From: an uncultured candidate division Zixibacteria bacterium
GTDB taxonomy: Bacteria; Zixibacteria; MSB-5A5; UBA10806; 4484-95
Direction of reading: 5' to 3'
Length of the DNA stretch: 64,000 bases
NCBI GenBank assembly: GCA_963668625.2
Contig: CAXXKA010000006.1
Location: 128,001-192,000 of the forward strand
A model generated the notes under the pieces. The model searched no databases. It saw only the letters and a list, made by a program, of their open reading frames with translations, and was not told where the DNA came from. This document shows, piece after piece, positions 1,276-36,964 of the stretch (positions are counted from its first letter, which is position 1; each line of letters begins with the position of its first letter). A program made the position numbers and the translations under genes.

Positions 1276-2328
1276 ATGGTCGGTATCGTAGGTTATGGAG
1301 CGTATATACCCCTAAACCGTATCAAGGTGGAGGAAATCGCTAAAGTATGGGGTGCCGATGCTCCCAGCTTCAAAAAGGGGTTAATGCTTCAGGAAAAATC
1401 AGTTCCCAGCCCGGATCAGGACACGATCACCATGTCGGTGGAGGCAGCAAGGAGGGCCATCCTTCGCGCCGGAATCGATCCTAAGAATATCGGAGCTGTT
1501 TATATTGGTTCGGAATCACACCCCTATGCGGTGAAACCCTCCGGTGTTACGGTCGCCGAGGCGATAGGGGCGGTACCCGATTGTCATTGCGCCGATTTCG
1601 AGTTCGCCTGTAAAGCAGGTTCAGAGGGAATGTTCGTTGCCATGGGCCTGGTGAAAGCAGGCGAGATCGAATATGGTCTCGGTATCGGCGGCGATACCTC
1701 GCAAGGCGCTCCCGGTGATGCTCTGGAATACAGCGCCTCGGCTGGAGCCGCGGCTTATATATTTGGCAAGGAGAACCTGGTAGCAGAATGCCTGTACACT
1801 CACTCGTACATGACTGACACGCCTGATTTCTGGAGAAGGGAGTACCAGTTCTACCCTCGTCACGCCAGCCGCTTTACCGGTGAACCGGCGTATTTCAAAC
1901 ATACATTCGGCTGTACTCAGGCTATTTTGGAGAAAGCCAACATGAAACCCGAGGATTTCAGGTTCGTGGTGTTCCATCAACCCAATGGGAAATTCCCCAT
2001 GACCGCCGGTTTGAAGCAGGGATTCAAACGCGAGCAAATCGAGCAGGGCTGGCTCTCGCCGCTGCTGGGTAACACCTACTCCGGGGCATCGCCGATGGGC
2101 TTGTCAGCCTGTCTTGATGTCGCCGAGCCGGGAGATAAAATTCTGATGATCTCGTACGGTTCGGGTTCGGGTAGTGATGGTTTCATCTGGGAGGTCAAGG
2201 ATCGTATCAAAGAGGTTCAGAAGATGACCGTGCAAACCCGCGAACAGCTCGAATCAGATAAGAGAATTTACCTAGATTACGGCACCTACGCCAAGTATCG
2301 CGGCAAGATCAGGAAACTCCCCGTTTAA
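1276..2328 (+). CDS. Hydroxymethylglutaryl-CoA synthase, archaeal type
   Basis: GIVGYGAYIP start, GSESHPYAVKP (catalytic Glu), EFACKAG (catalytic Cys), FHQPNGKFP (His), GNTYSG, SYGSGSGSD; 350 aa like archaeal HMGS. Confidence 0.93.
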   Translation: MVGIVGYGAYIPLNRIKVEEIAKVWGADAPSFKKGLMLQEKSVPSPDQDTITMSVEAARRAILRAGIDPKNIGAVYIGSESHPYAVKPSGVTVAEAIGAVPDCHCADFEFACKAGSEGMFVAMGLVKAGEIEYGLGIGGDTSQGAPGDALEYSASAGAAAYIFGKENLVAECLYTHSYMTDTPDFWRREYQFYPRHASRFTGEPAYFKHTFGCTQAILEKANMKPEDFRFVVFHQPNGKFPMTAGLKQGFKREQIEQGWLSPLLGNTYSGASPMGLSACLDVAEPGDKILMISYGSGSGSDGFIWEVKDRIKEVQKMTVQTREQLESDKRIYLDYGTYAKYRGKIRKLPV

Positions 2329-2354
2329 CTAGAATGCAATAGGAGAATAGATAA

Positions 2355-3521
2355 ATGAGAGAAGTTGCAATAATCGGTATCGGAATGAACAAATGGGGTG
2401 AGTTGTGGGATATCTCTATCCGCAACCTGATAGCTGACTCCGCCCTGTTGGCTTTAGATGATGCCGGTATTGAAAAGGATAAAGTGGAAGCGATGTATAT
2501 CGGCTGCATGTCCTCAGGGTTGTTTACCGACCAGGAGCATCTGGCAGCTATTGGCCCGGATTACTCGGGCATGTTACCGATTCCGTGTACCCGTGTCGAG
2601 TCGGCCTGCGCCTCGGGTGGACTGGCTTTCCGTTCGGCGCTCATGCATGTAGCCTCGGGCATGGCCGATATCGTAATGGCTGTCGGTGTGGAGAAGATGA
2701 CAGATGTCGATGGCGCCGGAGCTACTTTCGGACTGGCCACCGCCGCCGATCAGGAATACGAGGTGTACAACGGCGTGACATTCCCCGGCCTGTATTCCAT
2801 GATGGCAACCCATCACATGCATCACCACGGAACCACCCGCGACCAGATCGCAATGGTGTCGGTGAAAAACCATGAGAACGGTTCGAAAAACCCGCTGGCC
2901 CAATTCCCCATGAAAGTTACTCTGGAACAGGTGAAAAACGCCGTGATGGTTGCCGATCCGCTTTCCATCCTGGATTGCTCGCCTATAACCGATGGCTCGG
3001 CTGCGGTGATACTGTGCTCGATGGATAAAGCTAAAGAGATCTGCAAGAAACGCCTGGTGAAAGTAACCGGCTCGGGTCACGCTACCGATACGATACAGCT
3101 TGCCCAGCGCGAGGATCTATCATATTTAAAATCAACCCGGATAGCCGCTGAAATGGCTTACAAGATGGCCGGTCGTACGATCAAGGATATCGATTTTGCC
3201 GAGGTACACGATTGTTTCACTATTGCCGAGATCATGGTGATGGAGGCTATCGGCCTGGTGGATAAAGGCAAAGGCGGCCCGGCGGTCGAAAGCGGGCTTA
3301 CGCGTATCGATGGCAAGTTCCCGATCAACGCCTCGGGCGGTTTGAAATCGAAAGGTCATCCCGTGGGAGCTACCGGTGTAGCTCAGATAGTCGAGCTTAC
3401 CAAGCAGATTCGCGGTATTGCCGATGAGGGCCGTCAGCTAAAGAAAGCTGATGTTGGATTAGCACAGAACATGGGCGGCTCCGGTGCCAGCTCAGTTGTT
3501 CATATACTGGAGGGAATTTAA
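2355..3521 (+). CDS. Acetoacetyl-CoA thiolase, archaeal/SCP2 type
   Basis: [10 protein letters not shown] (nucleophile Cys), [38 protein letters not shown]. Confidence 0.92.
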
Positions 3522-3522
3522 T

Positions 3523-3915
3523 ATGCCGGCACCCAGATATTGGAGAGAGATACCTCAACGCTATCGCTATGAGGGCGTTAAATGCAAAAAGTGCGGCAAG
3601 GTCTGTTTCCCGACCAGGATAGTTTGCCCACAGTGTCAGCATCGCGAGTTCGATAAGGTGGTGGTTAGCACCGCCGGAACGCTAGAGACATTCACCGTGA
3701 TACGCGTAGCGCCATCACAGTTCGTAGACCAGGCGCCGTACCCGATCGGTATCGTTAACCTTGGTGATGATGTCAAAGTGCTATGCCAGGTGGCGGATGT
3801 TGCTCCCGAGGATTTGAAAGTCGGGATGAAGCTCAAACTCGAGTTCCGTAAAATCCAGCAGGAGCATGAGGATGGCATACTCTGCTACGGCTACAAGGCC
3901 GTACCGGAGGCCTAA
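3523..3915 (+). CDS. DUF35 Zn-ribbon/OB-fold scaffold protein of thiolase-HMGS complex
   Basis: MPAPRYWR start, CKKC..CPQC Zn ribbon, OB fold, C-terminal YGYKA; ATG 1 nt after thiolase stop. Confidence 0.9.
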   Translation: MPAPRYWREIPQRYRYEGVKCKKCGKVCFPTRIVCPQCQHREFDKVVVSTAGTLETFTVIRVAPSQFVDQAPYPIGIVNLGDDVKVLCQVADVAPEDLKVGMKLKLEFRKIQQEHEDGILCYGYKAVPEA

Positions 3916-3932
3916 GAAGAATGCAAAAACGA

Positions 3933-3961
3933 GTAGGGGCACAAGCATGCTGTGCCCCTGC
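3933..3961 (+). repeat. GTAG-type REP hairpin
   Basis: GTAGGGGCACA-AGCATGC-TGTGCCCCTGC. Confidence 0.7.
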
Positions 3962-3994
3962 GTTTATGTATCAAAATTGAATAAAATGCCGCAT

Positions 3995-4787
3995 GTGTCA
4001 GGATGGAAGGAACGACATCCTGACACTTGTAGCCCGTTTGTATTAGTAGATCAACGATAAGCTTATATGTCAGGATGGAAGCATAGCGACATCCTGACAT
4101 TGAATTCATTACGCACATGAATAATAACTGGAAGAATCATTATCTGGACAATGCCATACATCACGTAACCGGTACCGTTAATGCGTGGCAGAAAGTTTTA
4201 GTGTATCCTGATATATTATCTATTTTATTTTTAGACTTAAACCGTATGACTGTTAGATGGAATGTTACAGTATGGGGATTTGTAATCATGCCGGAACATT
4301 TTCATATGCTAATACAGAGCTGTAAAGGTGAGAATATTAAAAAGTTTATTCACGGTGGTAGACGTTCGATTTCAGGGAGAGTGAAGAGATTTATTGAATC
4401 GAATAATAGAATTATTGCAGATTATTGTGTTAAAAGCGGAATCAATACATCAATAATCTTTAATGTAAAAACAGCAGGGAAATTATCTTTTAGGTTTTGG
4501 AAAGAAAAACCTGGAGTATTTCCTATTTCTAATGAGATTGATGTCCAAAAGAAACTTGATTATATTCATAATAATCCTGTTAGGCGAGGTTTAGTTAAAT
4601 CACCTGAGGAATGGGAGTATTCGAGTTTTAATTATTATGCTGATGGGAAAATTGTAGGTTTGCCTGTTGGCGGGGGGCGTCAGGATGTCGCTAAGCTTCC
4701 ATCCTGACGGATAAAAGATGCTCTTATAAAAGAGATTGAATAAAATATACTTTATGTGTCAGGATGGAAGGAACGACATCCTGACAC
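3995..4787. mobile_element. REPtron: RAYT gene flanked by four (T/C)GTCAGGATG..CATCCTGAC(A/G) REP hairpins
   Basis: Copies at 3995-4026, 4067-4100, 4678-4709 (inverted) and 4756-4787; outer two identical (GTGTCAGGATGGAAGGAACGACATCCTGACAC). Confidence 0.85.
4117..4707 (+). CDS. REP-associated tyrosine transposase (RAYT, Y1 HUH family)
   Basis: GFVIMPEHFHML (HUH), RFW, KLDYIHNNPVRRGLV..PEEWEYSS (catalytic Tyr); AT-rich relative to neighbours; flanked by REPs. Confidence 0.92.
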   Translation: MNNNWKNHYLDNAIHHVTGTVNAWQKVLVYPDILSILFLDLNRMTVRWNVTVWGFVIMPEHFHMLIQSCKGENIKKFIHGGRRSISGRVKRFIESNNRIIADYCVKSGINTSIIFNVKTAGKLSFRFWKEKPGVFPISNEIDVQKKLDYIHNNPVRRGLVKSPEEWEYSSFNYYADGKIVGLPVGGGRQDVAKLPS

Positions 4788-4826
4788 TTTGGCAGATAAA
4801 TCGAACTAAACACGAAATGGAGCGAG

Positions 4827-6434
4827 ATGTTTCAAATAGAATCTAAGATCGACACCAAAAGCGCTGAGTTCAAAGCTAACTCAGAACACTGGAGAAAGCA
4901 GGCGGATGAATTCCGTGAACGTCTGGAGAAAGTAAAACAGGGCGGCCCGGAGAGAGCCCGGGATAAGCATCTCAAGAGAGGCAAGCTCTTAACCCGCGAC
5001 AGGGTCAGAGGTCTGTTCGATAAGAACACCCCGTTTCTCGAGCTAAGCTCGCTGGCCGCGTACGACATGTACGATAACGATGCTCCAAGCGCCGGTATTA
5101 TCACCGGTATCGGGGTTGTGCATGGCCGCGAGGTGCTGGTAGTTGCCAATGATGCCACAGTCAAGGGGGGAACATACTACCCCATGACAATCAAGAAACA
5201 TGTCCGGGCGCAGGAGGTGGCCGAGGCTAATAACCTTCCCTGTGTGTACCTCGTAGACTCAGGCGGCGTATTCCTGCCGCATCAGAAAGATGTGTTCCCC
5301 GACAAAGGCCATTTCGGAACGATATTCTACAACCAGGCCAGGTTATCCGCTAAAGGCATTGCTCAAATAGCTGTCGTGATGGGCTCATGCACGGCCGGTG
5401 GCGCGTATGTTCCGGCTATGAGTGATGAGGCTGTCATCGTACGCAAGCAGGGGACGATTTTCATAGGTGGCCCGCCTCTGGTTAAAGCTGCCACCGGTGT
5501 GGATGTCACCGATGAGGATTTAGGCGGCGCAGATGTTCATTGCCGTATCTCAGGCACCGCAGACCATTACGCTTTAAACGATGAGCATGCGCTGCAAATC
5601 ACCCGTAACATAGTCGAATGCCTGGAAGCTCCGAAGAAAACAGATATCGGCAGAAGAGAGCCCGAGGAGCCCAAGTACGATCCTAAAGAGCTGTTCGGCG
5701 TGATGCCCGCCGATATCAGAAAGCCTTTCGATATTAGAGAGATTATAGCCCGCATAGTTGACCGAAGCGAGTTCCAGGAGTTCAAGGAGCTATACGGCCA
5801 GACACTGGTCTGTGGTTTCGCTCGTATCATGGGGTACCCGGTTGGCATACTGGCCAATAACGGCGTGCTGTTTTCCGAAAGCTCGGTTAAAGGCGCGCAT
5901 TTTATTGAGCTATGTACTACGCGTAAAATTCCGCTGTTGTTTCTTCAGAATATTACCGGTTTCATCGTAGGCAAAGACTACGAGCACGGTGGTATCGCCC
6001 GTAACGGCGCCAAGCTGGTGCATGCCGTAGCCAACGCCGATGTCCCCAAGCTGACAGTGATGGTGGGTGGCTCATACGGCGCGGGCAACTACGCCATGTG
6101 CGGACGAGGCTACGAGCCAAGGTTCATCTGGATGTGGCCCAGCTCTAAAATATCCGTGATGGGCGGCGAGCAGGCAGCTAATGTGCTTCTGACCGTGCGC
6201 AAGAAAGGCCTCGAGGCTAAAGGTAAATCGATGACCAAAGAGGAGGAGGATGAGTTCCTCAAACCGATTATCGAACGATACGATTACGAGGGCTCGCCGT
6301 ATTTCTCCACCGCGCGTATCTGGGATGACGGAATAATCGATATGCTCGATACCCGTAACGTAATCGCGCTGGGATTATCGGCGGCGTTGAACGCATCGAT
6401 ACCGGAACAGCGTTACGGCGTGTTCAGGATGTAG
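4827..6434 (+). CDS. liuB: 3-methylcrotonyl-CoA carboxylase beta (carboxyltransferase) subunit
   Basis: [59 protein letters not shown]-terminal YGVFRM. Confidence 0.92.
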
Positions 6435-6531
6435 AGGTGACTATGGCGGATAACAATACATGCGGCTGGGGTACGGCCTCACGCCCCAACAATTGGTACA
6501 AGTTTACGTATGTCAAAATGAGAAGGCAATT

Positions 6532-7326
6532 ATGACAGATATAAAGCAATACACGACTATCAAACTTGATATAAGAGGCAAAGTAGCCCGGGTGATATTA
6601 AACCGTCCCGAGATAAGAAACGCGTTCAATAACGTGATGATCTCGGAGATGACCGAGGTATTCAAGCATATAAACTCCCGTGATGACCTCCGCGTGGTGG
6701 TAGTTACCGGCGAGGGCAAAGCGTTCTGCGCCGGCGCCGATTTGAAATGGATGAAAGGCGTTCTGGACTACACTTACGAGGAGAACCTTCAGGACAGCCA
6801 GAATCTCTCGGATATGTTCGCCGAGATGGCCAACTGCCCGCTGCCTACTATCGCTCGCGTGGATGGCCCGGCTATCGGAGGCGGCACCGGTATGGTAGCT
6901 GTTAACGATATCGTGATCGCCTCGGAGAACGCGCTTTTCAGCTTGAGCGAGGTCAAGATCGGTCTGGTTCCCGCCTGTATCTCTCCCTATGTCATCCGCA
7001 GAATGGGAGATTCCAACGCTCGCGAGTATTTCCTGACCGGCGAACGTCTGAACGCCGAGAAAGCCAAAGCCGCCGGACTGGTAAACCGTGTGGTTAGTTC
7101 GGATAAATTGGATAAGGAGATAGATGCACTGATTAAGCAGCTTCTATCAAGCGGTCCTAATGCTCTTGCCTGGTGCAAGCAGCTTATCGATAAAGTCCCG
7201 CCGATGGGGCAGAATGAGTACGGCCGTTACACCGCCGAGGTGATAACAAAGCTTCGCATGAGTGATGAGGGGCAGGAGGGCATGAAAGCGTTTTTCGAAA
7301 AGCGCAAACCCAAATGGTGCGAGTAA
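6532..7326 (+). CDS. liuC: Enoyl-CoA hydratase, probable methylglutaconyl-CoA hydratase
   Basis: LNRPEIRNAFN, FCAGADLKWM, AIGGGTG, SEVKIGLVPACISPYV, EGQEGMKAFFEKRKP; between MCC subunits; ATG 6532 preferred over 6460. Confidence 0.85.
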   Translation: MTDIKQYTTIKLDIRGKVARVILNRPEIRNAFNNVMISEMTEVFKHINSRDDLRVVVVTGEGKAFCAGADLKWMKGVLDYTYEENLQDSQNLSDMFAEMANCPLPTIARVDGPAIGGGTGMVAVNDIVIASENALFSLSEVKIGLVPACISPYVIRRMGDSNAREYFLTGERLNAEKAKAAGLVNRVVSSDKLDKEIDALIKQLLSSGPNALAWCKQLIDKVPPMGQNEYGRYTAEVITKLRMSDEGQEGMKAFFEKRKPKWCE

Positions 7327-7338
7327 CTTGATAGAAGA

Positions 7339-7587
7339 GTAGATCAAAACCCCTGCGGTTTTGATGCTATCGTTAGATGAGATTAAGTATCAATTAAAAT
7401 AAGATGAAGATAATTAGCAACTTAGGAAGCAAATAATGTTTTCAAAAATACTAGATGAGTAGGTCAAAATCCCTGCGGTTTTAACGATTGATAAATCACT
7501 AATCGTAGGTCAAGTCCACTCGGAACTTGGCAAACCGCTTGAATAAGGACAATAAAAATAGTCATGCCCCAAGTAGGCATGACCTAC
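7339..7587. repeat. Cluster of four GTAG-type REP hairpins (BIME-like)
   Basis: GTAGATCAAAAC..GTTTTGAT (7339), GTAGGTCAAAAT.. (7459), GTAGGTCAAGT..ACTTGGC (7505), and inverted GTAGGTCATGCC..GGCATGAC (7561-7587). Confidence 0.75.
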
Positions 7588-7599
7588 CAAGGACTGATA

Positions 7600-9102
7600 A
7601 TGTTTTCAAAAATACTAGTAGCTAACAGAGGCGAGATTGCGGTTCGAGTGATGAAAGCCTGTCGCGAGCTGGGAATCAAAACCGTGGCGGTATACTCGAC
7701 TATCGATCGTGATGCTCTTCACGTGCAGGTTGCCGATCAGGCCGTATGTATCGGCGAAGCCCCTCCCGGCGAGAGCTACCTCAATATCGATGCTATCATA
7801 AATGCGATTAAAGAGACCGGCGCCGATGCTGTTCATCCCGGCTATGGCTTTTTATCCGAGAACTATCTTTTCGCCGAGAGATGCGCAAAAGAGGGGATAG
7901 CGTTTATCGGGCCGTCGGCGGAATCGATGAAACTGGTGGGTGATAAGGTCGCCTCGCGCGAGGTGACAGAGAAAGCCGGCATACCGCTAATCCCCGGTAT
8001 GAGAGGCAAGAGCACGGATGTCAATGAATGCCTGGAGGAGGCCGAGCGAATCGGTTACCCGGTACTGCTTAAAGCCTCGGCAGGCGGCGGTGGCAAAGGT
8101 ATGCGCGTAGCTCGTGATAAAGCCGAGCTTAAGGACGCCGTGGAGGCGGGTATGCGCGAGGCCGGTTCGGCGTTCGGCGATCCCTCGGTGTATCTCGAAA
8201 AATATATCGAGCAGCCCCGTCATATAGAGTTCCAGGTGCTAGCTGATAATCACGGCAACGCCATTCACTTGTTCGAAAGGGAATGCTCGATACAACGCCG
8301 TCACCAGAAAATAGTAGAGGAAAGCCCCTCGCCGGTGCTAACCGATGAGCTTCGCAAAAAGATGGGCGAAACTGCCCTGAAAGTAGTCGAGGTCTCCAAT
8401 TATACCAACGCCGGTACGGTTGAGATGCTTCTGGATAAGCACGGCAATTACTATTTCCTGGAGGTCAATGCCCGCCTTCAGGTGGAGCACCCCGTAACCG
8501 AAATGGTAACAGGTGTTGACCTGGTGCACGCCCAGATAAGAATTGCCGCCGGCGAGAAGCTCTGGATAAAACAGGAGGATCTGTCCCAGCGCGGTCATGC
8601 AATCGAATGCCGTATCTATGCTGAGGATCCCGAAAACAATTTCTTACCTTCAGCCGGTAAGATACTTTATATGAAAGAACCAACCGGTCCCGGCATCCGT
8701 CACGATTGCGGCGTGTTCTCCGGCTACGAGGTTTCGGTTTATTATGATCCGATACTTTCCAAACTGATTGCCTGGGCGCCGGATCGTGAAATATGCTGCC
8801 ATCGTATGGCAAGAGCGCTGGAGGATTTTCCGGTTCTGGGAATCAAAACCGGTATCGAGTTTTTGCGGGATGTCGTGATTCATCCTGAATTTATTGCCGG
8901 TAACACTTTCACGGATTTCATCCCGGCCAACATGCCGGATTGGAAACACGAATCCGGGAATGGCGTTTTAAACGAGGCGTTAATTTCGGCGGTATTGTTC
9001 GGTAAATACAATCGCAAAAAGTCGATGGTGTCAGGTAAACAGGAGCTACCCTCGCCCTGGCTGGAGATAGGTGACTGGCAAATCGGCTCGGGCGCGGTTT
9101 AA
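7600..9102 (+). CDS. liuD: Biotin carboxylase (methylcrotonyl-CoA carboxylase alpha subunit, BC part)
   Basis: MFSKILVANRGEIA, HPGYGFLSEN, KASAGGGGKGMR, ERECSIQRRHQK, EVNARLQVEHPVTE, RIYAEDP. Confidence 0.92.
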   Translation: MFSKILVANRGEIAVRVMKACRELGIKTVAVYSTIDRDALHVQVADQAVCIGEAPPGESYLNIDAIINAIKETGADAVHPGYGFLSENYLFAERCAKEGIAFIGPSAESMKLVGDKVASREVTEKAGIPLIPGMRGKSTDVNECLEEAERIGYPVLLKASAGGGGKGMRVARDKAELKDAVEAGMREAGSAFGDPSVYLEKYIEQPRHIEFQVLADNHGNAIHLFERECSIQRRHQKIVEESPSPVLTDELRKKMGETALKVVEVSNYTNAGTVEMLLDKHGNYYFLEVNARLQVEHPVTEMVTGVDLVHAQIRIAAGEKLWIKQEDLSQRGHAIECRIYAEDPENNFLPSAGKILYMKEPTGPGIRHDCGVFSGYEVSVYYDPILSKLIAWAPDREICCHRMARALEDFPVLGIKTGIEFLRDVVIHPEFIAGNTFTDFIPANMPDWKHESGNGVLNEALISAVLFGKYNRKKSMVSGKQELPSPWLEIGDWQIGSGAV

Positions 9103-9118
9103 AAAAGATGGAGTTATA

Positions 9119-9643
9119 ATGGAACAAGAATTTGTATATCAGGGCGAGACTTATACGGTAAAAGTTGAAAACGCCAACGGGGATAACTCCAAGTCCGAGG
9201 CATTCAAAGCCTCGATAGCCGAGCGAGAATATGCGATTGACCTGGCAAAAGTGTCGGCTAATTGTTTCTCTGTCTCTTTCGATGGCACAAATAAAACCGT
9301 TTATGTTACTGATTCGGATGATTCGGTATTCGTTCACCTGGATGGTCGTGTCGTTAGGTTGGATAAGATTACCGATGACGCGAAGAAATTTTCCTCTGCC
9401 GGATTGGAGTATGGCGCCAAGGATGAGATCAAAGCGCCTATGCCGGGTAAGGTGGTGAAAATACTGGTCGAGCAGGGGCAGACGATCGAGGTCGGCCAAC
9501 CGCTGGTAATAGTTGAGTCGATGAAGATGGAGAACGAAATCAAATCGCCAACAAACGGGACTGTAAAGGCGATTAATTTTGCAGCCGGAGATTTAGTCGA
9601 TCCCAGTCAGGCGATATTAAATCTAGAACCTGATGAGGAGTAA
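9119..9643 (+). CDS. Biotin carboxyl carrier protein (with N-terminal BT-like region)
   Basis: APMPGKVV..VESMKMENEI biotinylation motif; SD GGAG before ATG 9119. Confidence 0.9.
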   Translation: MEQEFVYQGETYTVKVENANGDNSKSEAFKASIAEREYAIDLAKVSANCFSVSFDGTNKTVYVTDSDDSVFVHLDGRVVRLDKITDDAKKFSSAGLEYGAKDEIKAPMPGKVVKILVEQGQTIEVGQPLVIVESMKMENEIKSPTNGTVKAINFAAGDLVDPSQAILNLEPDEE

Positions 9644-9835
9644 ATAATATTACATGGTCTTCCAATATTTTGCTATTGAAGTATAAATATGCTTGAAAAA
9701 CTTGATTTATATAACAATTACCTCTATAATAGAATTATATGATATATAATGGGTTAAGCTCAATCGACTCGTATGAGTTAAATATTATTTGACAAAAAGA
9801 TTCCAATACTATTTACTTTCTGTTAAGAAAGGACT

Positions 9836-10279
9836 TTGCTTATGATATTTTCACAAACAGCTTACTACGCCATGCGGGCTGTATATTATCTATTAACGAC
9901 CAGTGATAACGAATGGCATCTTACAAAAGATGTTGCCGAGTCTACTAAGATACCGGCTCCGTATCTTGCCAGAATCATGTCAACCCTGGCAAAACGCGGT
10001 ATTCTTCGTTCACGCACCGGAATGGGCGGCGGTTTTAGTATCTCGAACGAGGGAATGAACCAAACCCTGTATGATGTCGTTACGCAGTTCGATAATTTCG
10101 ATAATGTACCCGAGTGCATGTTCGGTTTTACAAATTGTAAAGCCGATGATCACAACTATCTTCATGAGAAGTGGACGGATGTGAAAGAGAGGCTGGTCAA
10201 TATGCTCAAGGAAACCAAGCTTGGTGCTTTGAAACATGATCAGGAACTCATCGACTGGCAAAAAGTTGAGTCAGTGTAG
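9836..10279 (+). CDS. Rrf2-family transcriptional regulator
   Basis: FSQTAYYAMRA, IPAPYLARIM, LRSRTGMGGGF wHTH; ECMFGFTNC..LHEKW. Confidence 0.9.
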   Translation: MLMIFSQTAYYAMRAVYYLLTTSDNEWHLTKDVAESTKIPAPYLARIMSTLAKRGILRSRTGMGGGFSISNEGMNQTLYDVVTQFDNFDNVPECMFGFTNCKADDHNYLHEKWTDVKERLVNMLKETKLGALKHDQELIDWQKVESV

Positions 10280-10304: not shown

Positions 10305-10336
10305 AACCCGGTGATTTGGTATCGCCGGGTTTTTTT
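10305..10336 (+). terminator. Rho-independent terminator
   Basis: AACCCGGTGAT-TTGGT-ATCGCCGGGTT followed by T run. Confidence 0.75.
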
Positions 10337-11870: not shown

Positions 11871-14234
11871 ATGTCTTTAACCAATATCACCGGCAAAAAG
11901 CTCGAATTCGGCAACAGAAGAGCACTCTATCTGGATATCACCGAGTTTAAAGATCAGCCAGGATCCATCGGCAACGACACTATCGATTCTTTGAATAAAT
12001 TCAATCTCTGGTATCGAACCCTGTGCTCGATACTGTTCAACTTTGCTCAATCCGGCCATCCCGGCGGCAGTGTCTCCTCAGGTCATTTCGTCTCCTCGGC
12101 TATTATCGAGACGATGGATTACGATATCAGCGATCCCGACCGGGCTGACAACGATATGATTAGCTATGCCGCCGGTCATAAGGCGCTGGGTTTGTACGCC
12201 ATGTGGGCCTCCCGTAACGAGATGCTTCGCATTGCCAATCCTGAAATCCTGCCCGAGGAGAGAAAACAGCTCCGGTTGGAGGATATGCTTGGTTTCCGGA
12301 GAAACCCTACTCAGGACACCCCTCTGTTCAAGAAGTTCAATGCCAAACCTCTTGATGGTCACCCGACTCCGATGACTCCTTTTTTGAAGCTCTCGACCGG
12401 CCCCTCCGGCGTGGGCGTACCCGCCTCACTGGGATTAGCGATGGGAGCGCTGGATAGATTCGGTAAGAACCATCCGAAAGTGCATATTATCGAGGGCGAG
12501 GGCGGCATGACTCCCGGACGAGTATCAGAGGCATTGGCAACCGCCAGCTCTGGTCTGCTCAAAAACGTTATCCTTCATGTAGACTGGAACCAGGCCTCGA
12601 TTGATTCCAACAACGTATGCCGTAACGGCGCCACGCCCGGCGACTACGTGCAATGGGATCCGATCGAATTTTTATACCTTCACGATTGGAATGTGATCTA
12701 CGTTCCCGATGGTTTCGATTACGATATGGTCATTCGTGCCCAGCGAATCGCCAAGGAGGGATTAAACGATCAACCCACCGCTATCGTGTATAAAACCGTT
12801 AAGGGTTGGCGTTACGGTATAGAGGGCAAAGCCTCGCACGGGGCAGGACACAAATTCTGCTCGGATGAATATTACAAATCGCTCGAGGAATTCGAAAACG
12901 CTTTCAATTTCAAACTTCCGAGGCTGGAACAACAAAGTACCCCCGAGGAGTTGGAGCAGTTATACTACGACACCCTTTTGGCGCTTCGCAATGTGGCCGA
13001 ATCGGAAACCGAGATGCATGGCTATATCGCCAGAAGAGTAGCCGGCAGCAAAGACAGGCTCGATAAACTTAATCGTAAGCCGCGACCGGATGCTCCCGAT
13101 TTGAGCAAGTTGTACAGCGATAGCAGCATCGATTCCCAGAAGATACCCGAAAGCCTTCAGCTGGCTCCCGGCGCCAAATCGACTCTTCGCGGCGAACTGG
13201 GCAAGTGCCTGGGCTATCTCAACAATCATACCAGTGGCGCATTTATAGGCGGGGCGGCCGATCTTCTGGGCTCGACCTCGGTAAATAAATTGAATGGTGA
13301 TTACCCCGGCGGATTTTATAATTTCGTCAATAACTCCAAGGCTCGTTTGATCGCGGTCGGTGGTATTTGCGAGGATGCCCTGGGCGCATTCATGACAGGC
13401 GTATCATCGTTTGGTTTCAATATAGGGGTGAGCGCCTCGTACGCGGCTTTCATCGCGGCCCTGGAGCATATCGCGGCTCGTGTGCATTGTATAAGCCAGC
13501 AGGCCCGTCACGATTTCAACGGCGAGCCGTTCAAGACCTTCATCATGATATGTGGTCATGCCGGATTGAAAACCGGTGAGGATGGCCCCACGCACGCCGA
13601 TCCGCAGGCGCTTCAACTTCTACAGGAAAATTTCCCGCATGGAAAAGCCATTACGTTAGTACCCTGGGACCCGCAGGAACTCTGGCCGCTTCTGGTCGAG
13701 GGCTTGAAAAAACAGCCCGCGTTGTTAGCACCGTACGTTACCCGCCCCAGCGAGGCGATAATAGATCGCGCCAAGTTTTATCTTCCCCCGGCAACCGAGG
13801 CTGTCAAGGGTGTGTACCAGTTCCGCAAAGCCGATCCGAACAAAGCTCCGTATCACGGCACTGTCGTGTTGCAGGGCAGCGCTGTTACCAACGATTTTGT
13901 CACTTACGTGCTGCCTAAGCTGGATGAGGGCGGTTACAATATGAATATTTACTATGCCGCAAGCGCCGAGCTGTTCTCGCTTCTGCCTGAGGATGAGCAA
14001 GAGGCTATTTTCCCGGAGGCAAGGCGGGCTGAGGCGATGGGTATCACCGGTTTCACCTTTCCGACTATCTATCGCTGGGTGACCTCTGATTACGGTCGTA
14101 AGCACTCGATTCACTCTTTCAGCAAGGGGATTTATCCCGGCTCCGGCAAAGCTGATAAAGTGATGCAGGAGGTTGGCCTGGATGGCGTGGCACAATGGGC
14201 AAAGATTCAGGAATATATAAAAGGCAGAGCTTAG
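11871..14234 (+). CDS. Transketolase-family TPP enzyme (divergent, 787 aa)
   Basis: SGHPGG, AAGHKA, LDGHPT, STGPSG, EGEGG..DWNQASID, GGAADL, GICE, TGEDGPTH. Confidence 0.8.
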   Translation: MSLTNITGKKLEFGNRRALYLDITEFKDQPGSIGNDTIDSLNKFNLWYRTLCSILFNFAQSGHPGGSVSSGHFVSSAIIETMDYDISDPDRADNDMISYAAGHKALGLYAMWASRNEMLRIANPEILPEERKQLRLEDMLGFRRNPTQDTPLFKKFNAKPLDGHPTPMTPFLKLSTGPSGVGVPASLGLAMGALDRFGKNHPKVHIIEGEGGMTPGRVSEALATASSGLLKNVILHVDWNQASIDSNNVCRNGATPGDYVQWDPIEFLYLHDWNVIYVPDGFDYDMVIRAQRIAKEGLNDQPTAIVYKTVKGWRYGIEGKASHGAGHKFCSDEYYKSLEEFENAFNFKLPRLEQQSTPEELEQLYYDTLLALRNVAESETEMHGYIARRVAGSKDRLDKLNRKPRPDAPDLSKLYSDSSIDSQKIPESLQLAPGAKSTLRGELGKCLGYLNNHTSGAFIGGAADLLGSTSVNKLNGDYPGGFYNFVNNSKARLIAVGGICEDALGAFMTGVSSFGFNIGVSASYAAFIAALEHIAARVHCISQQARHDFNGEPFKTFIMICGHAGLKTGEDGPTHADPQALQLLQENFPHGKAITLVPWDPQELWPLLVEGLKKQPALLAPYVTRPSEAIIDRAKFYLPPATEAVKGVYQFRKADPNKAPYHGTVVLQGSAVTNDFVTYVLPKLDEGGYNMNIYYAASAELFSLLPEDEQEAIFPEARRAEAMGITGFTFPTIYRWVTSDYGRKHSIHSFSKGIYPGSGKADKVMQEVGLDGVAQWAKIQEYIKGRA

Positions 14235-14599: not shown

Positions 14600-14770
14600 T
14601 TTCTAACTGGAGCGGATAGGTTATAGGCTGAACTGAATGCTTGAGGCCAGACCTCGTAAAGGAGATTAATCAGACCTGTAACCGAATTGCCACCATAAGG
14701 CAAAGACCTTGAATAGGAGTTTGGTAGGCGCCGACAGAGAGTCTGCTCCAGTGATAACCATAGAATGGAG
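14600..14770 (+). ncRNA. Candidate IS110 bridge RNA in left non-coding end
   Basis: Stems 14606-14616/14742-14752 and 14619-14631/14670-14683; internal ATAGGAG (14713-14719) identical to the element's right end. Confidence 0.6.
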
Positions 14771-14777
14771 CAAGAAG

Positions 14778-15791
14778 ATGAGGTACTTAGGAGTAGACCT
14801 TCACACAAACAGTTTGACCGTGTGTTACCTGACAGCCGGTGGTCGGGAGAGGATCAAGGAGTATCGGCTAAAGGATCTAAAGGAATTTAAACGAGGATTA
14901 AAAAAGACGGATTGTGTAGCGGTTGAGGCCACTGGCAACACTCGTTATTTCGTTGATGAGATATCGCATTTGGTCAAGCGAGTTGTTGTCGTCGATCCGA
15001 ACAAATTTGAGATAATCAAATCATCAGTCAGTAAGACGGATGAAAACGATGCCAGGAACTTAGCCTATTTTATGAGCAAAGACATGTTGCCGAAAGCCCG
15101 ATTAAAGACGAAAGATAAAGCGCAGATCAGTTCACTTGTTGGGACACGGGACAAGCTGGTCAAGTTACGTACAGCTTTGAAGAATAAAATACACAACATA
15201 CTCAATCATCATGGTATCAAGAGTAAAAAGGAGGCCTACTCCAGCAACAAGAGTTTGGAGCGGGTTCTAAAGATGAATTTTGATGAGGTTGTTTCTGTTG
15301 AGCTTGAGGTATTGGTTGATCAGATTCGCAGTTTGAATGAGGGGATAAAAAAGCTGGACAAACAGATAGAGGATCAGGGTCGCAAGTTGAACGGGCATAA
15401 GAACCTGACCAGCATCAAAGGAATCGGCAGCAAATCAGCTACAGTGTTGCTTTCGGTAATTGGTGATGTTGCTGATTTTTCGGACAAAGATAAATTGGCC
15501 TCATATTTTGGCGTAGTGCCGCGAGTTTCCAATTCAAACGAGATTCAGCATCATGGTCGGATTACCAAGCGTGGTTCTAAGATTGGTCGGACTACACTGG
15601 TGCAGTGTACGCTTGTTGCCATACGATATAACCATTACTTGAGTAAATATTACAATCGTATAAAAAACCGTCGTGGCAGCGGTAAGGCTATCATTGCCAC
15701 AGCCAGAAAATTACTGGGAATAATCTATGACACCTTGAAAAATAATTGGGTGTTTGAAGATTTCCCTAACTTTGTGTTAGCAAACAGATAA
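14778..15791 (+). CDS. IS110-family transposase/recombinase (DEDD + Tnp20 domains)
   Basis: MRYLGVDLH, VAVEATG, KTDENDA, LTSIKGIG, SYFGVVPRVSNS, ITKRGS, KAIIATARKLL. Confidence 0.95.
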   Translation: MRYLGVDLHTNSLTVCYLTAGGRERIKEYRLKDLKEFKRGLKKTDCVAVEATGNTRYFVDEISHLVKRVVVVDPNKFEIIKSSVSKTDENDARNLAYFMSKDMLPKARLKTKDKAQISSLVGTRDKLVKLRTALKNKIHNILNHHGIKSKKEAYSSNKSLERVLKMNFDEVVSVELEVLVDQIRSLNEGIKKLDKQIEDQGRKLNGHKNLTSIKGIGSKSATVLLSVIGDVADFSDKDKLASYFGVVPRVSNSNEIQHHGRITKRGSKIGRTTLVQCTLVAIRYNHYLSKYYNRIKNRRGSGKAIIATARKLLGIIYDTLKNNWVFEDFPNFVLANR

Positions 15792-34369: not shown

Positions 34370-34534
34370 TAACGGAGTATGTTGATTTTATATTGCCGGA
34401 GATGTTAATTCGATTAAATAACAGGGAGCTTAGATTTAGGACTTTCAGATTAAGTTATGGAAAGTCTTGATTTTATACTATACGTTTTATAAATTTCCCC
34501 GAAAATAATGATAAAAATAACTCAAGGAGATTTT

Positions 34535-35670
34535 ATGGATATTGGAATAGCCAAAGAGGGTGATCATCTTGAAAACAGGGTTGCGCTAACTCCCGCCGGC
34601 GCGAAAACCCTGATAAACGCCGGTCATACGGTTTATCTGGAGCAGGGCGCCGGAGAGGCATCAGGATTCCAGGATGACGATTATCTGGATGTCGGCGTAA
34701 AACTGGTTTACTCCGAGGAGGAGATATTTTTACGCTCTAAAATATTGCTAAAAGTTGCTCCCCCGACAATCGATGAATGTGAAATGATGCCGGGAAAACC
34801 AGATCGTGCTGACGGCCTTTCATCTGGCTGTGGCGCCGGAGGATAGCTTGAAGCTGCTCCTGGAAAAGAAGATCAGCTCTGTAGGTTACGAGATTATCGA
34901 GGATGATGAGGGTAACCTGCCGGTTGTCGTTCCGATGTCTGAATTAGCAGGTCAGATGACGATTCAGATCGCCAGCAACCATCTGATGAACAGCCGAGGT
35001 GGTCGAGGTATCCTTCTGGGCGGAGCCGCCGGTGTGCCGCCGGCAACGGTGATAATTCTGGGCGCGGGCACGCTTGGCATAAACGCTGCCAAGACGGCTA
35101 AAGGCATCGGCGCCAACGTAATCCTGTTCGACAGCGATATCAGCCGTCTGAGATATGCCAACGACTTGTTCAAAAAACAAATCGTTACTTATCTTCCGTT
35201 CGAGTACAACCTCGAAAAAGCTGTTCAAATCGCCGATGTTATTATCGGTGCGGTTTCCATTCACGGTGAGATGGCGCCCAAGCTTATTACCGAGAAGATG
35301 CTCAAGTCGATGAAGCCTCGGTCATTGGTAATAGATGCCGCTATCGATACCGGAGGGATGTATCGAAGCCTCACATCCTACCAACTGGACCGATCCGACC
35401 TATGTCTCGGAAAATATCATTCATTTCTGTGTACCAAATATGCCGTCCAATATTAGCCGTACGGCCACCTATGCATTATCCAACGCTATCCTGCCTTATG
35501 TTTACCGTATAGCAGAGGTCGGGCTTGATAAATCGATGCAACAGGATTACGGCCTGGCTCGTGGTGTTTATACTCATAAAGGAGAAGCATTGAGAAACGT
35601 AGTTGCCAATAGACTGGGAATTAAAGCCAGGGCTTTGAAAGATATTCTTGCTGTGGGGGGTAAGGCATGA
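34535..35670 (+). CDS. ald: Alanine dehydrogenase (two +1 frameshifts)
   Basis: IGIAKE..ENRVALTP, PMSELAG, GRGILLGG, ILGAGTLG, DAAIDTGG/CIE, HFCVPNMP; breaks near 34792 and 35356. Confidence 0.85.
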
Positions 35671-36964
35671 GGTGGATAGATCTCTATCATAGCCGTCAAA
35701 TATCCGCGGATGATGCGGTGAAATGCATAAAGTCGGGAGATAATGTTTATATACATCCCGGCTGCTGTACACCGGAATATCTCGTTGATGCTATGGTAAA
35801 ACGTAAAGACGAACTCGAGAATGTCACGGTTATGCACATCCTGACCGAAGGCAAGGCGGCTTATACTCAGCCGGGTATGGAACCTCATTTTCGTCACCGT
35901 TCGTTGTTTACCGGTAAAAAACGCCCGACAGGCGGTGAACGAAGGGCGTGCCGATCAATCGCATATGTTTTTAGGCGAGGTGGAAAAGCTCTGGACAACC
36001 GGCATCGTTGATGTTGACGTGGCGATTATCCAGGTCAGTCCGCCTGATGAACACGGTTTCTGCTCGTTCGGCGTAGGTGTCGATGTTACCATGACGGCTG
36101 CCCATAAAGCCCAAAATCGTGCTGGCCATGGTCAACCAGAAAATGCCGCGCGTTCACGGTGACTGCTTCATTCATGTTAGCAAGCTCACTCATATTGTCG
36201 AACATACTACGCCTCTTTTGGAGATGCCGCAGGGTACCCCCGATGAGGTCTCGATAAAAATCGGTAAGCTGATTGCCGATCATATCGATGATGGTTCGAC
36301 ACTTCAGATGGGGATCGGGGCTATTCCCGACGCGTTTCTATCGGAGCTCGAAGGCCGTCATGATATGGGTATTCACACCGAGATGTTTTCCGACGGTATC
36401 ATCCCGCTGGTAGAATCAGGCGTGATCAATAACTCGCAAAAGACTCTTCACCCCGGTAAGATAGTCGCGGCTTTTACCCTGGGCACCCGGCCGATATTCG
36501 ATTTCTGCGATGATAATCCGTTGTGTGAATTCCATCCCTGCTGGTACACCAACGATCCGTTTATCATAGCCCAGAACGACAAGATGGTCTCGATCAACTC
36601 GGCTTTAGGTGTCGACCTGACCGGCCAGGTATTTGCAGATTCGCTGGGATTCAATTTCTATTCGGGATTCGGCGGCCAGCTTGATTTCGTAAGGGGTGCG
36701 GCTAAATCCAAAGGCGGTATGCCTTTCATCGCTTTGCCCGCCACTGCCAAAGGCGGCAAACTCTCGAGAATCGCACCTAACTTGCCGTTGGGAACCGGCG
36801 TAACCACCACTCGTGGCGATGTCCACTGGATCGTGACCGAGTTCGGCGCGGTTGATCTTTACGGCAAAACCGTACGTGAGAGAACGAAACTACTTATCAG
36901 CATAGCGGCTCCTCAGTTCAGGGAGGAGTTGGAGAAATTCGCCAAGGAGCATAAATATATCTAG
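35667..36964 (+). CDS. Acetyl-CoA hydrolase/4-hydroxybutyrate CoA-transferase family (two +1 frameshifts)
   Basis: ADDAVKCIKSGD, QVSPPDEHGFCSFGV, TLQMGIGAIP, GIHTEMFSDG, SGFGGQLDF, IVTEFG; breaks near 35916 and 36110. Confidence 0.87.

Follow-up and report, generated by a model that had tools for sequence, protein, structure and literature searches.

A gene cluster that links the archaeal-type HMG-CoA synthase complex with 3-methylcrotonyl-CoA carboxylase in Zixibacteria and other bacteria

A bacterial 3-hydroxy-3-methylglutaryl-CoA (HMG-CoA) synthase (HMGS) is usually taken as a sign of the mevalonate pathway; what, then, is the role of such a synthase when its gene is kept together with those for 3-methylcrotonyl-CoA carboxylase (MCC) in genomes with neither HMG-CoA reductase (HMGR) nor HMG-CoA lyase? 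The question is raised by a gene cluster at positions 1276-9643 of a 64,000-nucleotide stretch of DNA (hereinafter, the window; positions 128,001 to 192,000 of contig CAXXKA010000006.1, assembly GCA_963668625.2) from an uncultured candidate division Zixibacteria bacterium, the genome of which (hereinafter, the sample genome) consists of 10 contigs (4.3 Mb, 95.9 % complete). Open reading frame (ORF) calls and family scans delineate eight ORFs in this segment, all on the plus strand, and agree with a first-pass annotation of the sequence, which had recognized, in this order, HMGS, a thiolase, a DUF35 protein, a REP-associated tyrosine transposase (RAYT), the carboxyltransferase (beta) subunit of MCC, a hydratase, a biotin carboxylase (BC) and a biotinyl carrier protein (BCCP). 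The seven genes of the cluster, apart from the RAYT-like gene, are as follows (aa, amino acids).

1276-2328, plus strand: archaeal-type HMGS, 350 aa (TIGR00748 508.8 bits, cut-off 353.35; NF003274 510 bits)
2355-3521, plus strand: SCP-x-like archaeal-type acetoacetyl-CoA thiolase, 388 aa (NF004720 533 bits, cut-off 420)
3484-3915, plus strand: DUF35 scaffold protein with a zinc ribbon and an OB fold (PF01796, OB_ChsH2_C, 67.5 bits; PF12172, zf-ChsH2, 27.7 bits)
4827-6434, plus strand: MCC beta (carboxyltransferase), 535 aa (PF01039 503 bits)
6460-7326, plus strand: crotonase-family hydratase (PF00378 203 bits; NF005675 269 bits, cut-off 350; NF004227, gamma-carboxygeranoyl-CoA hydratase, 243 bits, cut-off 426)
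7564-9102, plus strand: BC of the ATP-grasp type, 512 aa (TIGR00514 647.5 bits, cut-off 626.5)
9071-9643, plus strand: BT-like domain and biotinyl carrier protein (BT-BCCP), 190 aa (PF00364 72.9 bits; PF21385, ACCA_BT, 22.3 bits, under the cut-off)

The enzyme families are all known, and the combination is not. The nearest HMGS loci in public genomes belong to Candidatus Zixiibacteriota records. An archaeal origin of the window was ruled out, the 16S scoring 1594 bits with the bacterial model and 1053 bits with the archaeal one.

The two halves of the cluster

The first gene is predicted to encode a catalytically active HMG-CoA synthase of the archaeal type. The first-pass annotation had considered its Glu, Cys and His to be intact and, indeed, the complete tetrad E80, C112, H234 and N266 aligns with E82, C114, H238 and N270 of the archaeal enzyme. 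When the protein is compared with archaeal and PhlA-type sequences, as that annotation had proposed, the archaeal ones are closer: the score is 455.9 bits with the synthase chain of the Methanothermococcus thermolithotrophicus complex (6esq_I) and 196 bits with PhlA. The thiolase scores 385.6 bits with the corresponding chain of the same complex (6esq_A) and 519 bits, under the cut-off of 600, with NF053570, the model of the M. thermolithotrophicus thiolase; its CxS (C85-A-S), HDxF (H285-D-C-F, the shared CoA site) and GHx (G334-H-P) motifs are all kept. Together with the E-C-H-N tetrad, these are the motifs that, according to a recent report (PMC12960953, 2026), mark the true complexes of HMGS and acetoacetyl-CoA thiolase (ACAT) as opposed to the repurposed bacterial ones. 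The zinc ribbon of the DUF35 protein contains two CxxC pairs (residues 34-37 and 48-51); translation of DUF35 probably begins at the ATG at 3523, immediately 3' of the thiolase stop, and the DUF35 proteins of relatives align from about residue 12 on. Each of the three genes is present in a single copy in the sample genome, so that this HMGS is the only one there. An adjacent trio of HMGS, SCP-x-type thiolase and DUF35 is the gene arrangement of the channelling complex, the assembly of which is predicted here from the genes alone. The resemblance to the archaeal complex extends to three adjacent subunits, substantial similarity of HMGS and thiolase to the solved chains, and conservation of the motifs and the zinc ribbon; the difference is that the triad described here is found in a bacterium and is joined in an operon-like run with MCC and a hydratase.

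In the second half, the carboxyltransferase is most similar, among the structures in the PDB, to the beta subunits of human MCC (739 bits) and Pseudomonas aeruginosa MCC (737 bits, gapless over 532 residues), followed by geranyl-CoA carboxylase beta (468 bits) and propionyl-CoA carboxylase (PCC) beta (at most 285 bits). The alignment with P. aeruginosa MCC beta has no gaps over the segment HFGxIF(F/Y)NQ; the published numbering of the aromatic residue that excludes geranyl-CoA (Phe191, the Phe191/Gly162 position) does not map to the chain index. The best NCBIfam models for the crotonase-family protein, NF005675 and NF004227, both score under their cut-offs; we infer that the gene, probably starting at the ATG at 6532, encodes a putative 3-methylglutaconyl-CoA hydratase similar to LiuC and AtuE. 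The MCC alpha subunit is represented by two proteins, BC and BT-BCCP, rather than by a single chain, but all its domains are present, and the carrier domain of BT-BCCP, the true start of which is probably the ATG at 9119, contains the biotin attachment motif SMKM. This split is real and not a sequencing error because separate ORFs recur elsewhere, namely BC of about 500 aa in 32 other loci and BT-BCCP of about 180 aa in 25, with the split confirmed in the six loci that were checked from stop to stop; a sequencing frameshift in the sample genome is thereby ruled out.

The closest known counterpart of this half is LiuABCDE, the leucine/isovalerate utilization system of Pseudomonas, where the gene order is liuB-liuC-liuD, the same as that of MCC beta, the hydratase and BC/BCCP. 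The likeness is reinforced by the gapless alignment of the carboxyltransferases and by three sister lineages (G031, G032 and G040) in which the same module is followed by the lyase. The differences are that the sample genome has neither an isovaleryl-CoA dehydrogenase (IVD) of the LiuA type nor the LiuE lyase, that the alpha subunit is split in two proteins and that the HMGS/thiolase/DUF35 triad precedes the module.

Conservation of the linkage and the distribution of mevalonate and lyase genes

The linkage was examined in 41 genomes of the same class, including the sample genome, 36 of which have a strong HMGS match, and in a wider set with one genome per GTDB species, in which the best 80 loci of 594 HMGS relatives were analysed. 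In 24 of the 36 HMGS-bearing class genomes, MCC beta is located within 10 kb of HMGS on the same contig; several of the remaining 12 have short contigs or contig ends, and in three genomes (G024, G031 and G034) the two blocks are on separate contigs. Among the best 80 loci, MCC beta is present in 47, that is, in 47 of the 61 informative ones, the other 19 being too short to judge: it lies no more than 1.3 kb 3' of DUF35 on the same strand in 36 loci, 2.3-8 kb downstream on the same strand in 8, upstream on the same strand in 2, and adjacent but divergent in 1. The remaining 14 loci have no MCC beta despite at least 3.4 kb of downstream sequence, and no recurrent neighbour partner of the triad was found in them. 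Because it recurs in 24 of 36 class genomes and 47 of 80 other loci, the adjacency is far beyond chance. The linked loci come from records of Zixibacteria, Aminicenantes/Acidobacteriota, Eisenbacteria, Glassbacteria, Planctomycetota and Elusimicrobiota; the full seven-gene order from HMGS to BCCP is found in the Zixibacteria, Aminicenantes/Acidobacteriota and Glassbacteria records, the carboxylase block comes first in those of Eisenbacteria and Elusimicrobiota, and in a Planctomycetales record its genes lie on either side of the triad, on the opposite strand. The first-pass annotation had proposed HMG-CoA as the meeting point of two halves that belong together; this proposal gains support from the synteny across phyla, and the unlinked blocks in relatives that it had named as grounds for abandoning the proposal are not what the class genomes present.

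Conceivably, the two blocks could still be neighbours without a shared pathway, held together by co-regulation in response to acetyl-CoA status or by inherited gene order. The triad loci without a nearby MCC beta (14 of the 61 informative ones), the blocks on different contigs in the three genomes mentioned above, and the hairpin and RAYT insertion that separate the blocks in the sample genome would all fit such a relationship. However, the spacer between DUF35 and MCC beta is frequently only 13-90 nucleotides long in RAYT-free loci, leaving little room for separate transcription units, and the same order persists in records of five or more phylum-level groups. Moreover, a triad that is kept after the loss of HMGR and of diphosphomevalonate decarboxylase (MDD), as described next, must act, and the only other recognized HMG-CoA enzyme is the adjacent hydratase. 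Mere neighbourhood thus appears very improbable.

No HMG-CoA lyase, IVD or HMGR is encoded in the window, as the first-pass annotation had noticed, and for the lyase and IVD the absence extends to the whole sample genome: the best match to the lyase model NF004283 scores 45 bits (cut-off 246), and the three acyl-CoA dehydrogenases, all at 605-614 kb of contig C1, near genes for thiolase II and 3-hydroxybutyryl-CoA dehydrogenase, best match the short-chain acyl-CoA dehydrogenase/Bcd type, with IVD 90-140 bits lower. The canonical liuA/liuE set, the presence of which elsewhere in the genome would have argued against a common function of the two halves, is therefore not there. HMGR, however, is found on another contig, in a mevalonate operon that consists of IDI2 (type 2 IPP isomerase), a fusion of HMGR with mevalonate kinase (MVK), MDD and a GHMP kinase similar to phosphomevalonate kinase (PMK), in that order. 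The fusion protein is a 768-aa ORF (C1:343800-346107, corresponding to L084:9801-12107) with a class II HMGR (TIGR00532 334 bits) and an MVK (TIGR00549 201 bits) part; MDD (TIGR01240 231 bits, above the cut-off) belongs to the ordinary diphosphomevalonate-decarboxylase family and not to the archaeal variants. Open frames of the HMGR-MVK type, 731-796 aa long, are present in 12 other class genomes (families f1, f4 and f7); the thirteenth HMGR match, in G039 (family f13), falls in an open frame of 599 aa where a contig ends, and outside the class there is an 822-aa HMGR open frame in G042. We know of no description of an HMGR-MVK fusion. The search of the genome that the annotation had called for also turned up genes of the methylerythritol phosphate (MEP) pathway, dxs (781 bits) and ispH (288 bits), alongside hmgR and mevalonate kinase. 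Neither an AtuA homologue nor any match to PF01144, the family of AibA and AibB, was found in the sample genome.

The distribution of these genes among relatives is the key observation on the role of the cluster. HMGR was identified with PF00368 and MDD with the cut-off of TIGR01240, and control genomes gave the expected results. HMGR is present in 14 and MDD in 15 of the 41 class genomes, including 8 and 9, respectively, of the 9 genomes of the window's own family. HMGR and MDD were found in none of the 14 genomes of the sister family f2, the single-contig G013 and G021 among them, nor in any genome of families f3, f5, f6, f8 and f12. All in all, 27 of the 41 class genomes and, outside the class, G041, G043 and G045-G050 gave no HMGR match; HMGR is present in G042 and G044, and the lyase in G045. 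Among the 24 class genomes with the linkage, 14 lack both HMGR and MDD, and 12, two of them closed, lack HMGR, MDD and a lyase above the cut-off (G010, G012, G013, G015, G016, G017, G019, G020, G021, G026, G029 and G038). Likewise, neither HMGR nor lyase accompanies the cluster in the closed Aminicenantes chromosome G041 and in the Eisenbacteria genome G043 (both searched for these two enzymes but not for MDD). With 12 of the 24 linked relatives and G041 devoid of HMGR and lyase, the role of the conserved cluster is, judging by gene content, independent of mevalonate. The only recognized HMG-CoA enzymes in these genomes are the triad and the adjacent hydratase and, therefore, the seven genes are best read as one pathway.

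One of the possibilities raised in the first-pass annotation was that the locus feeds leucine carbon into an archaeal-type mevalonate pathway. In the sample genome, with its operon of IDI2, HMGR-MVK, MDD and the PMK-like kinase, such a flow is possible, but the lower pathway is not the archaeal variant; as the reason for the conserved link, the idea did not hold, given the 14 of 24 linked relatives without HMGR and MDD. Mevalonate feeding is thus an extra option in the family of the sample genome and not the reason for the gene linkage. A related scenario posits two converging suppliers of HMG-CoA, with HMGS running forward, a LiuBCD-like module running catabolically, and a single sink, namely, mevalonate in the sample genome and an unrecognized enzyme (a non-homologous lyase or reductase) in the relatives without HMGR. 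The complete lower mevalonate operon, next to which the HMGS in the window is the sole one in the genome, and the presence of the HMGR-MVK fusion in families f1, f4 and f7 and of HMGR in f13 are compatible with this scenario. A candidate for the unrecognized HMG-CoA-processing enzyme is conceivable as well, namely an AtuA-family (PF07287) protein, the gene for which separates the triad from MCC beta in L023 and L076 and adjoins the triad in L041 and L052; in L067, it is found 8 kb 3' of the triad, immediately ahead of a fragment of MCC beta with which the locus ends. In G030, a genome devoid of HMGS and lyase, a run of genes (L098, C2:270001-290000) encodes AtuA, MCC beta, hydratase, BC, BCCP, thiolase II, 3-hydroxyacyl-CoA dehydrogenase and two acyl-CoA dehydrogenases. 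Nevertheless, the absence of an AtuA homologue from the sample genome, the 12 linked genomes without HMGR, MDD and lyase, and G041 and G043 without HMGR and lyase weigh against this scenario, which requires an unknown enzyme in many lineages. Furthermore, dxs and ispH in the sample genome and ispH in the HMGR-less carriers (G013, G021, G026, G041 and G043) indicate that isoprenoids can be made without mevalonate, which is therefore dispensable for this purpose. We consider the convergence of two suppliers on one sink to be improbable.

Direction of the proposed pathway

We infer from the gene complement that the seven genes form a single module, centred on HMG-CoA, that would interconvert three molecules of acetyl-CoA with 3-methylcrotonyl-CoA and CO2. 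Of the two directions, both of which had been listed in the first-pass annotation, we rank the catabolic one, with HMGS and thiolase replacing the lyase, slightly above the biosynthetic one, at a rough probability of 0.38. Leucine or isovalerate would be converted to 3-methylcrotonyl-CoA via a Bcd-like acyl-CoA dehydrogenase and carboxylated by MCC with its split alpha subunit (BC and BT-BCCP); the product would be hydrated to HMG-CoA, and the thiolase/HMGS/DUF35 complex, running in reverse, would convert HMG-CoA and two CoA to three acetyl-CoA. The triad would thereby substitute for HMG-CoA lyase and an acetoacetate CoA-transferase, with the third thioester kept, and in the sample genome the same HMG-CoA pool might also be drawn into mevalonate by the HMGR-MVK fusion. 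That such a lyase-free route, with a reversed triad saving a thioester, is widespread in Zixibacteria, Aminicenantes and other sediment bacteria is a tentative proposition, to which we give about one chance in three.

The opposite direction would start with the synthesis of HMG-CoA by the triad, followed by its conversion to 3-methylglutaconyl-CoA by the hydratase, decarboxylation to 3-methylcrotonyl-CoA by the biotin enzyme in reverse, possibly with the formation of ATP, and reduction to isovaleryl-CoA by a Bcd-like enzyme; the products would be primers of iso-branched fatty acids or leucine, in a route similar to the Aib pathway in which MCC replaces AibA/AibB. In its favour, the triad is a full orthologue, with intact catalytic motifs, of an archaeal complex that evolved for synthesis, and there are genomes with HMGS and no HMGR in which MCC beta is unlinked or not found. 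No AibA/B-like PF01144 protein was found in the 36 class genomes without an in-cluster lyase, which would make MCC the only candidate decarboxylase. The stress and envelope genes that flank the cluster in two phyla (Hsp20, Hsp70, DnaJ and ClpB in Zixibacteria, and an ECF sigma factor, an anti-sigma factor, LiaF and HtrA in Aminicenantes) would suit the adjustment of membrane lipids.

The distribution of the lyase bears on the choice between the two directions. A high-scoring lyase (362-407 bits) is encoded directly 3' of BCCP in G027, G031, G032, G036 and G040, and PF01144 CoA-transferases are present in 5 of the 41 class genomes, the same five, with the transferase gene in G032 located directly after the lyase gene. 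A family-I CoA-transferase (PF01144) is needed to reactivate acetoacetate. Therefore the pair of lyase and transferase, on the one hand, and the triad, on the other hand, look like alternative partners of the MCC-hydratase module; the orthologous modules that, in sister families, sit with lyase and CoA-transferase in a catabolic layout speak against the biosynthetic direction. In G019, the lyase gene (C16:4329-5201) is interrupted, with four or more fragments that lie in different reading frames, and the linked triad-MCC cluster is intact. In a quick tree of MCC beta (43 rows, with ORFs shorter than 500 aa omitted), three lyase-linked sequences group with L017 and L080 (SH-aLRT 96); the tree does not settle the direction.

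All complete clusters include the ATP-grasp BC subunit, which argues for ATP-driven carboxylation, that is, for the catabolic direction, inasmuch as a decarboxylating biotin enzyme needs no such subunit. The recurrent neighbours also count for this direction: a Bcd-type acyl-CoA dehydrogenase in 8 loci (with 5ol2_C as the closest structure), 3-hydroxyacyl-CoA dehydrogenase in 7 and thiolase II in 6, in addition to a set that comprises a PCC-like carboxylase, a B12 mutase and an epimerase. Myxococcus, which has MCC, uses a dedicated decarboxylase, and in mitochondria the MCC reaction is treated as irreversible, both of which make a decarboxylating MCC less plausible. Searches for the leuB and leuC families gave only below-cut-off matches; nonetheless, a leuA-leuC-leuB-like cluster is probable in G013, and the biosynthetic route would be unneeded for leucine there. 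On balance, synthesis of isovaleryl-CoA from acetyl-CoA by this cluster is the main rival and only somewhat less probable, and we retain the lyase-free breakdown of leucine or isovalerate as the preferred, still tentative, reading.

Several observations weigh against this lyase-free breakdown. To our knowledge, net reversal of HMG-CoA synthase has never been shown, and its hydrolysis step is regarded as irreversible. The thiolase condensation costs some +25 kJ/mol, and the synthase step resembles the citrate synthase reaction in the energy that it releases; by this rough estimate, the overall reaction of the complex would be near equilibrium and might be reversed at a high ratio of CoA to acetyl-CoA. 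The acyl-CoA dehydrogenases of the sample genome and those encoded in the clusters of other phyla are closest to the clostridial Bcd (5ol2_C), with no IVD type among them, and clostridial Bcd-type dehydrogenases often run reductively; the Bcd type of the nearby dehydrogenases is accordingly also a point for synthesis. The genomes G027 and G036 carry the triad, in convergent orientation, beside the lyase-containing cluster, so the replacement is not clean, and a lyase-like gene with a lower score (271-283 bits) is present away from the cluster in six other genomes. These lower-scoring genes may belong to a pathway other than leucine breakdown: in G003 (C22), G007 (C296) and G039 (C49), as well as for the broken copy in G019 (C16), the lyase-like gene lies within a few kb of a LeuC-like large subunit of the aconitase family, about 434 aa long. 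Five genomes have an unlinked triad and no HMGR; one of these, the closed Phycisphaerales genome G047, has HMGS and thiolase, no HMGR and no MCC beta (E <= 1e-100), so the triad must have another role there. Furthermore, the related genomes are non-independent samples, and in the sample genome itself the two halves may be transcribed separately because of the RAYT insertion and the 3933-3961 hairpin.

Comparison with known systems places the cluster apart from each of them. In the Aib pathway, the parts are MvaS, LiuC, the AibA/AibB decarboxylase and the AibC reductase. This alternative biosynthesis of isovaleryl-CoA in Myxococcus xanthus (PMC5389471) is a precedent for the biosynthetic direction, in that an HMG-CoA synthase is tied to methylglutaconyl-CoA hydratase and 3-methylcrotonyl-CoA outside isoprenoid synthesis. 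The cluster described here differs in that AibA/B-type PF01144 proteins are missing from the sample genome and 35 other class genomes, that a complete ATP-dependent biotin carboxylase is present and that the HMGS is of the archaeal-complex type and not MvaS. The bacterial PhlABC and MucABC Friedel-Crafts acyltransferases share the three-subunit architecture similar to HMGS, ACAT and DUF35, but, according to PMC12960953, they have lost the E-C-H-N tetrad and HDxF, which are kept in the proteins encoded in the window; the bit scores given above likewise place the HMGS with the archaeal enzyme rather than with PhlA. From the archaeal complex, in turn, the cluster is set apart by the retention of the triad in many genomes without HMGR, where it would not serve mevalonate. 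If the catabolic direction is correct, a mechanistic analogy, involving another enzyme family and another pathway, would be the reversed citrate synthase of the reversed oxidative tricarboxylic acid cycle in Desulfurella and Thermosulfidibacter: in both cases, a nominally irreversible, thioester-hydrolysing synthase would be reversed by the next enzyme and by mass action.

The first-pass annotation knew of no description of this combination, and none turned up in a search of the full-text literature (subscription journals and supplements were not covered): neither the operon nor an HMGR-less HMGS triad beside MCC is described there, and no paper combines HMG-CoA synthase, methylcrotonyl-CoA carboxylase and DUF35. 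Among the papers with both Zixibacteria and mevalonate, one, PMC7495880, mentions mevalonate a single time, in a figure legend. The persistence of the gene run without the known users of HMG-CoA suggests that acetyl-CoA and branched five-carbon compounds are connected by a route that has yet to be described, and metabolic models reconstructed from the genomes of these sediment phyla, which are abundant and uncultured, are probably wrong at HMG-CoA synthase. Either direction would yield something new. A catabolic route would imply that the HMG-CoA synthase complex is reversible, in parallel to the reversed citrate synthase, and that it saves one thioester per leucine (about one ATP equivalent) in amino-acid fermentation compared with lyase and CoA-transferase; a biosynthetic route would imply the use of a biotin carboxylase as a decarboxylase that makes branched primers from acetyl-CoA.

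The gap between the two halves and the surroundings of the cluster

The gap between DUF35 and MCC beta and the region directly 3' of the cluster contain the following elements.

3933-3961, plus strand: GC-rich, terminator-like hairpin of 11 base pairs (7 GC) and a weak T tail, just 3' of DUF35
3996-4025, no strand: repetitive extragenic palindromic (REP) hairpin 5' of the RAYT-like gene (TGTCAGGATG ... CATCCTGACA)
4068-4099, no strand: second REP hairpin 5' of the RAYT-like gene
4117-4707, plus strand: RAYT-like gene, 196 aa (NF047646 77.9 bits, cut-off 80; PF01797 20.2 bits, under the cut-off)
4757-4786, no strand: REP hairpin 3' of the RAYT-like gene
9836-10279, plus strand: Rrf2-family regulator, directly 3' of the cluster (PF02082 82.8 bits)

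The first hairpin, a possible partial terminator, has an arm sequence with no second copy in the genome. The insertion of a RAYT between the two halves, as read in the first-pass annotation, is corroborated by the REP hairpins that flank the gene, the score of which is just under the cut-off of NF047646. The genome contains 7 full REP hairpins, 3 of which surround this gene, and the 10-mer core of the REP occurs 100 times compared with about 8 expected. RAYT homologues are found in the same gap in L004 (two tandem copies), L008, L009 and G013 (L102); the genomes belong to two families, and the proteins are 56-70 % identical. This recurrence points to prolonged vertical inheritance or, alternatively, to a site that is preferred for insertion.

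The Rrf2 gene is flanked by a promoter-like site (9702-9730) and a terminator-like site (10305-10331) of its own, and an Rrf2 gene lies 3' of BCCP in just 1 of the 80 other loci (L006); the regulator is a neighbour and, at most, a candidate member of the cluster. Scans of the window with Rfam and for tRNA gave no matches. A 787-aa protein encoded at 11871-14234 shows weak matches to transketolase domains (PF00456 50 bits; NF004559 127 bits, cut-off 488) and is, to judge from these, a divergent thiamine-diphosphate enzyme. An IS110-family transposase gene (14709-15791; NF033542, 242 bits) is located 5 kb 3' of the cluster. At 34508-36964 and 39636-41854, genes are seemingly broken into short overlapping ORFs that represent either assembly frameshifts or pseudogenes; they encode an alanine dehydrogenase/PNT-like protein, a C-terminal fragment of an acetyl-CoA hydrolase/transferase (36119-36964) and a TonB-dependent receptor with split plug and barrel.

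In other genomes, the flanks of the cluster consist of stress genes in loci of both the Aminicenantes and the Zixibacteria type. In the former (L028, L030, L040, L042, L043, L049-L051, L055 and L058-L060), genes for an extracytoplasmic function (ECF) sigma factor, a zf-HC2 anti-sigma factor and a LiaF-like protein lie upstream, and those for an ECF sigma factor and HtrA downstream; in the latter (L016, L023, L026, L062, L067, L068 and L076), the upstream genes encode Hsp20, Hsp70, DnaJ and ClpB.

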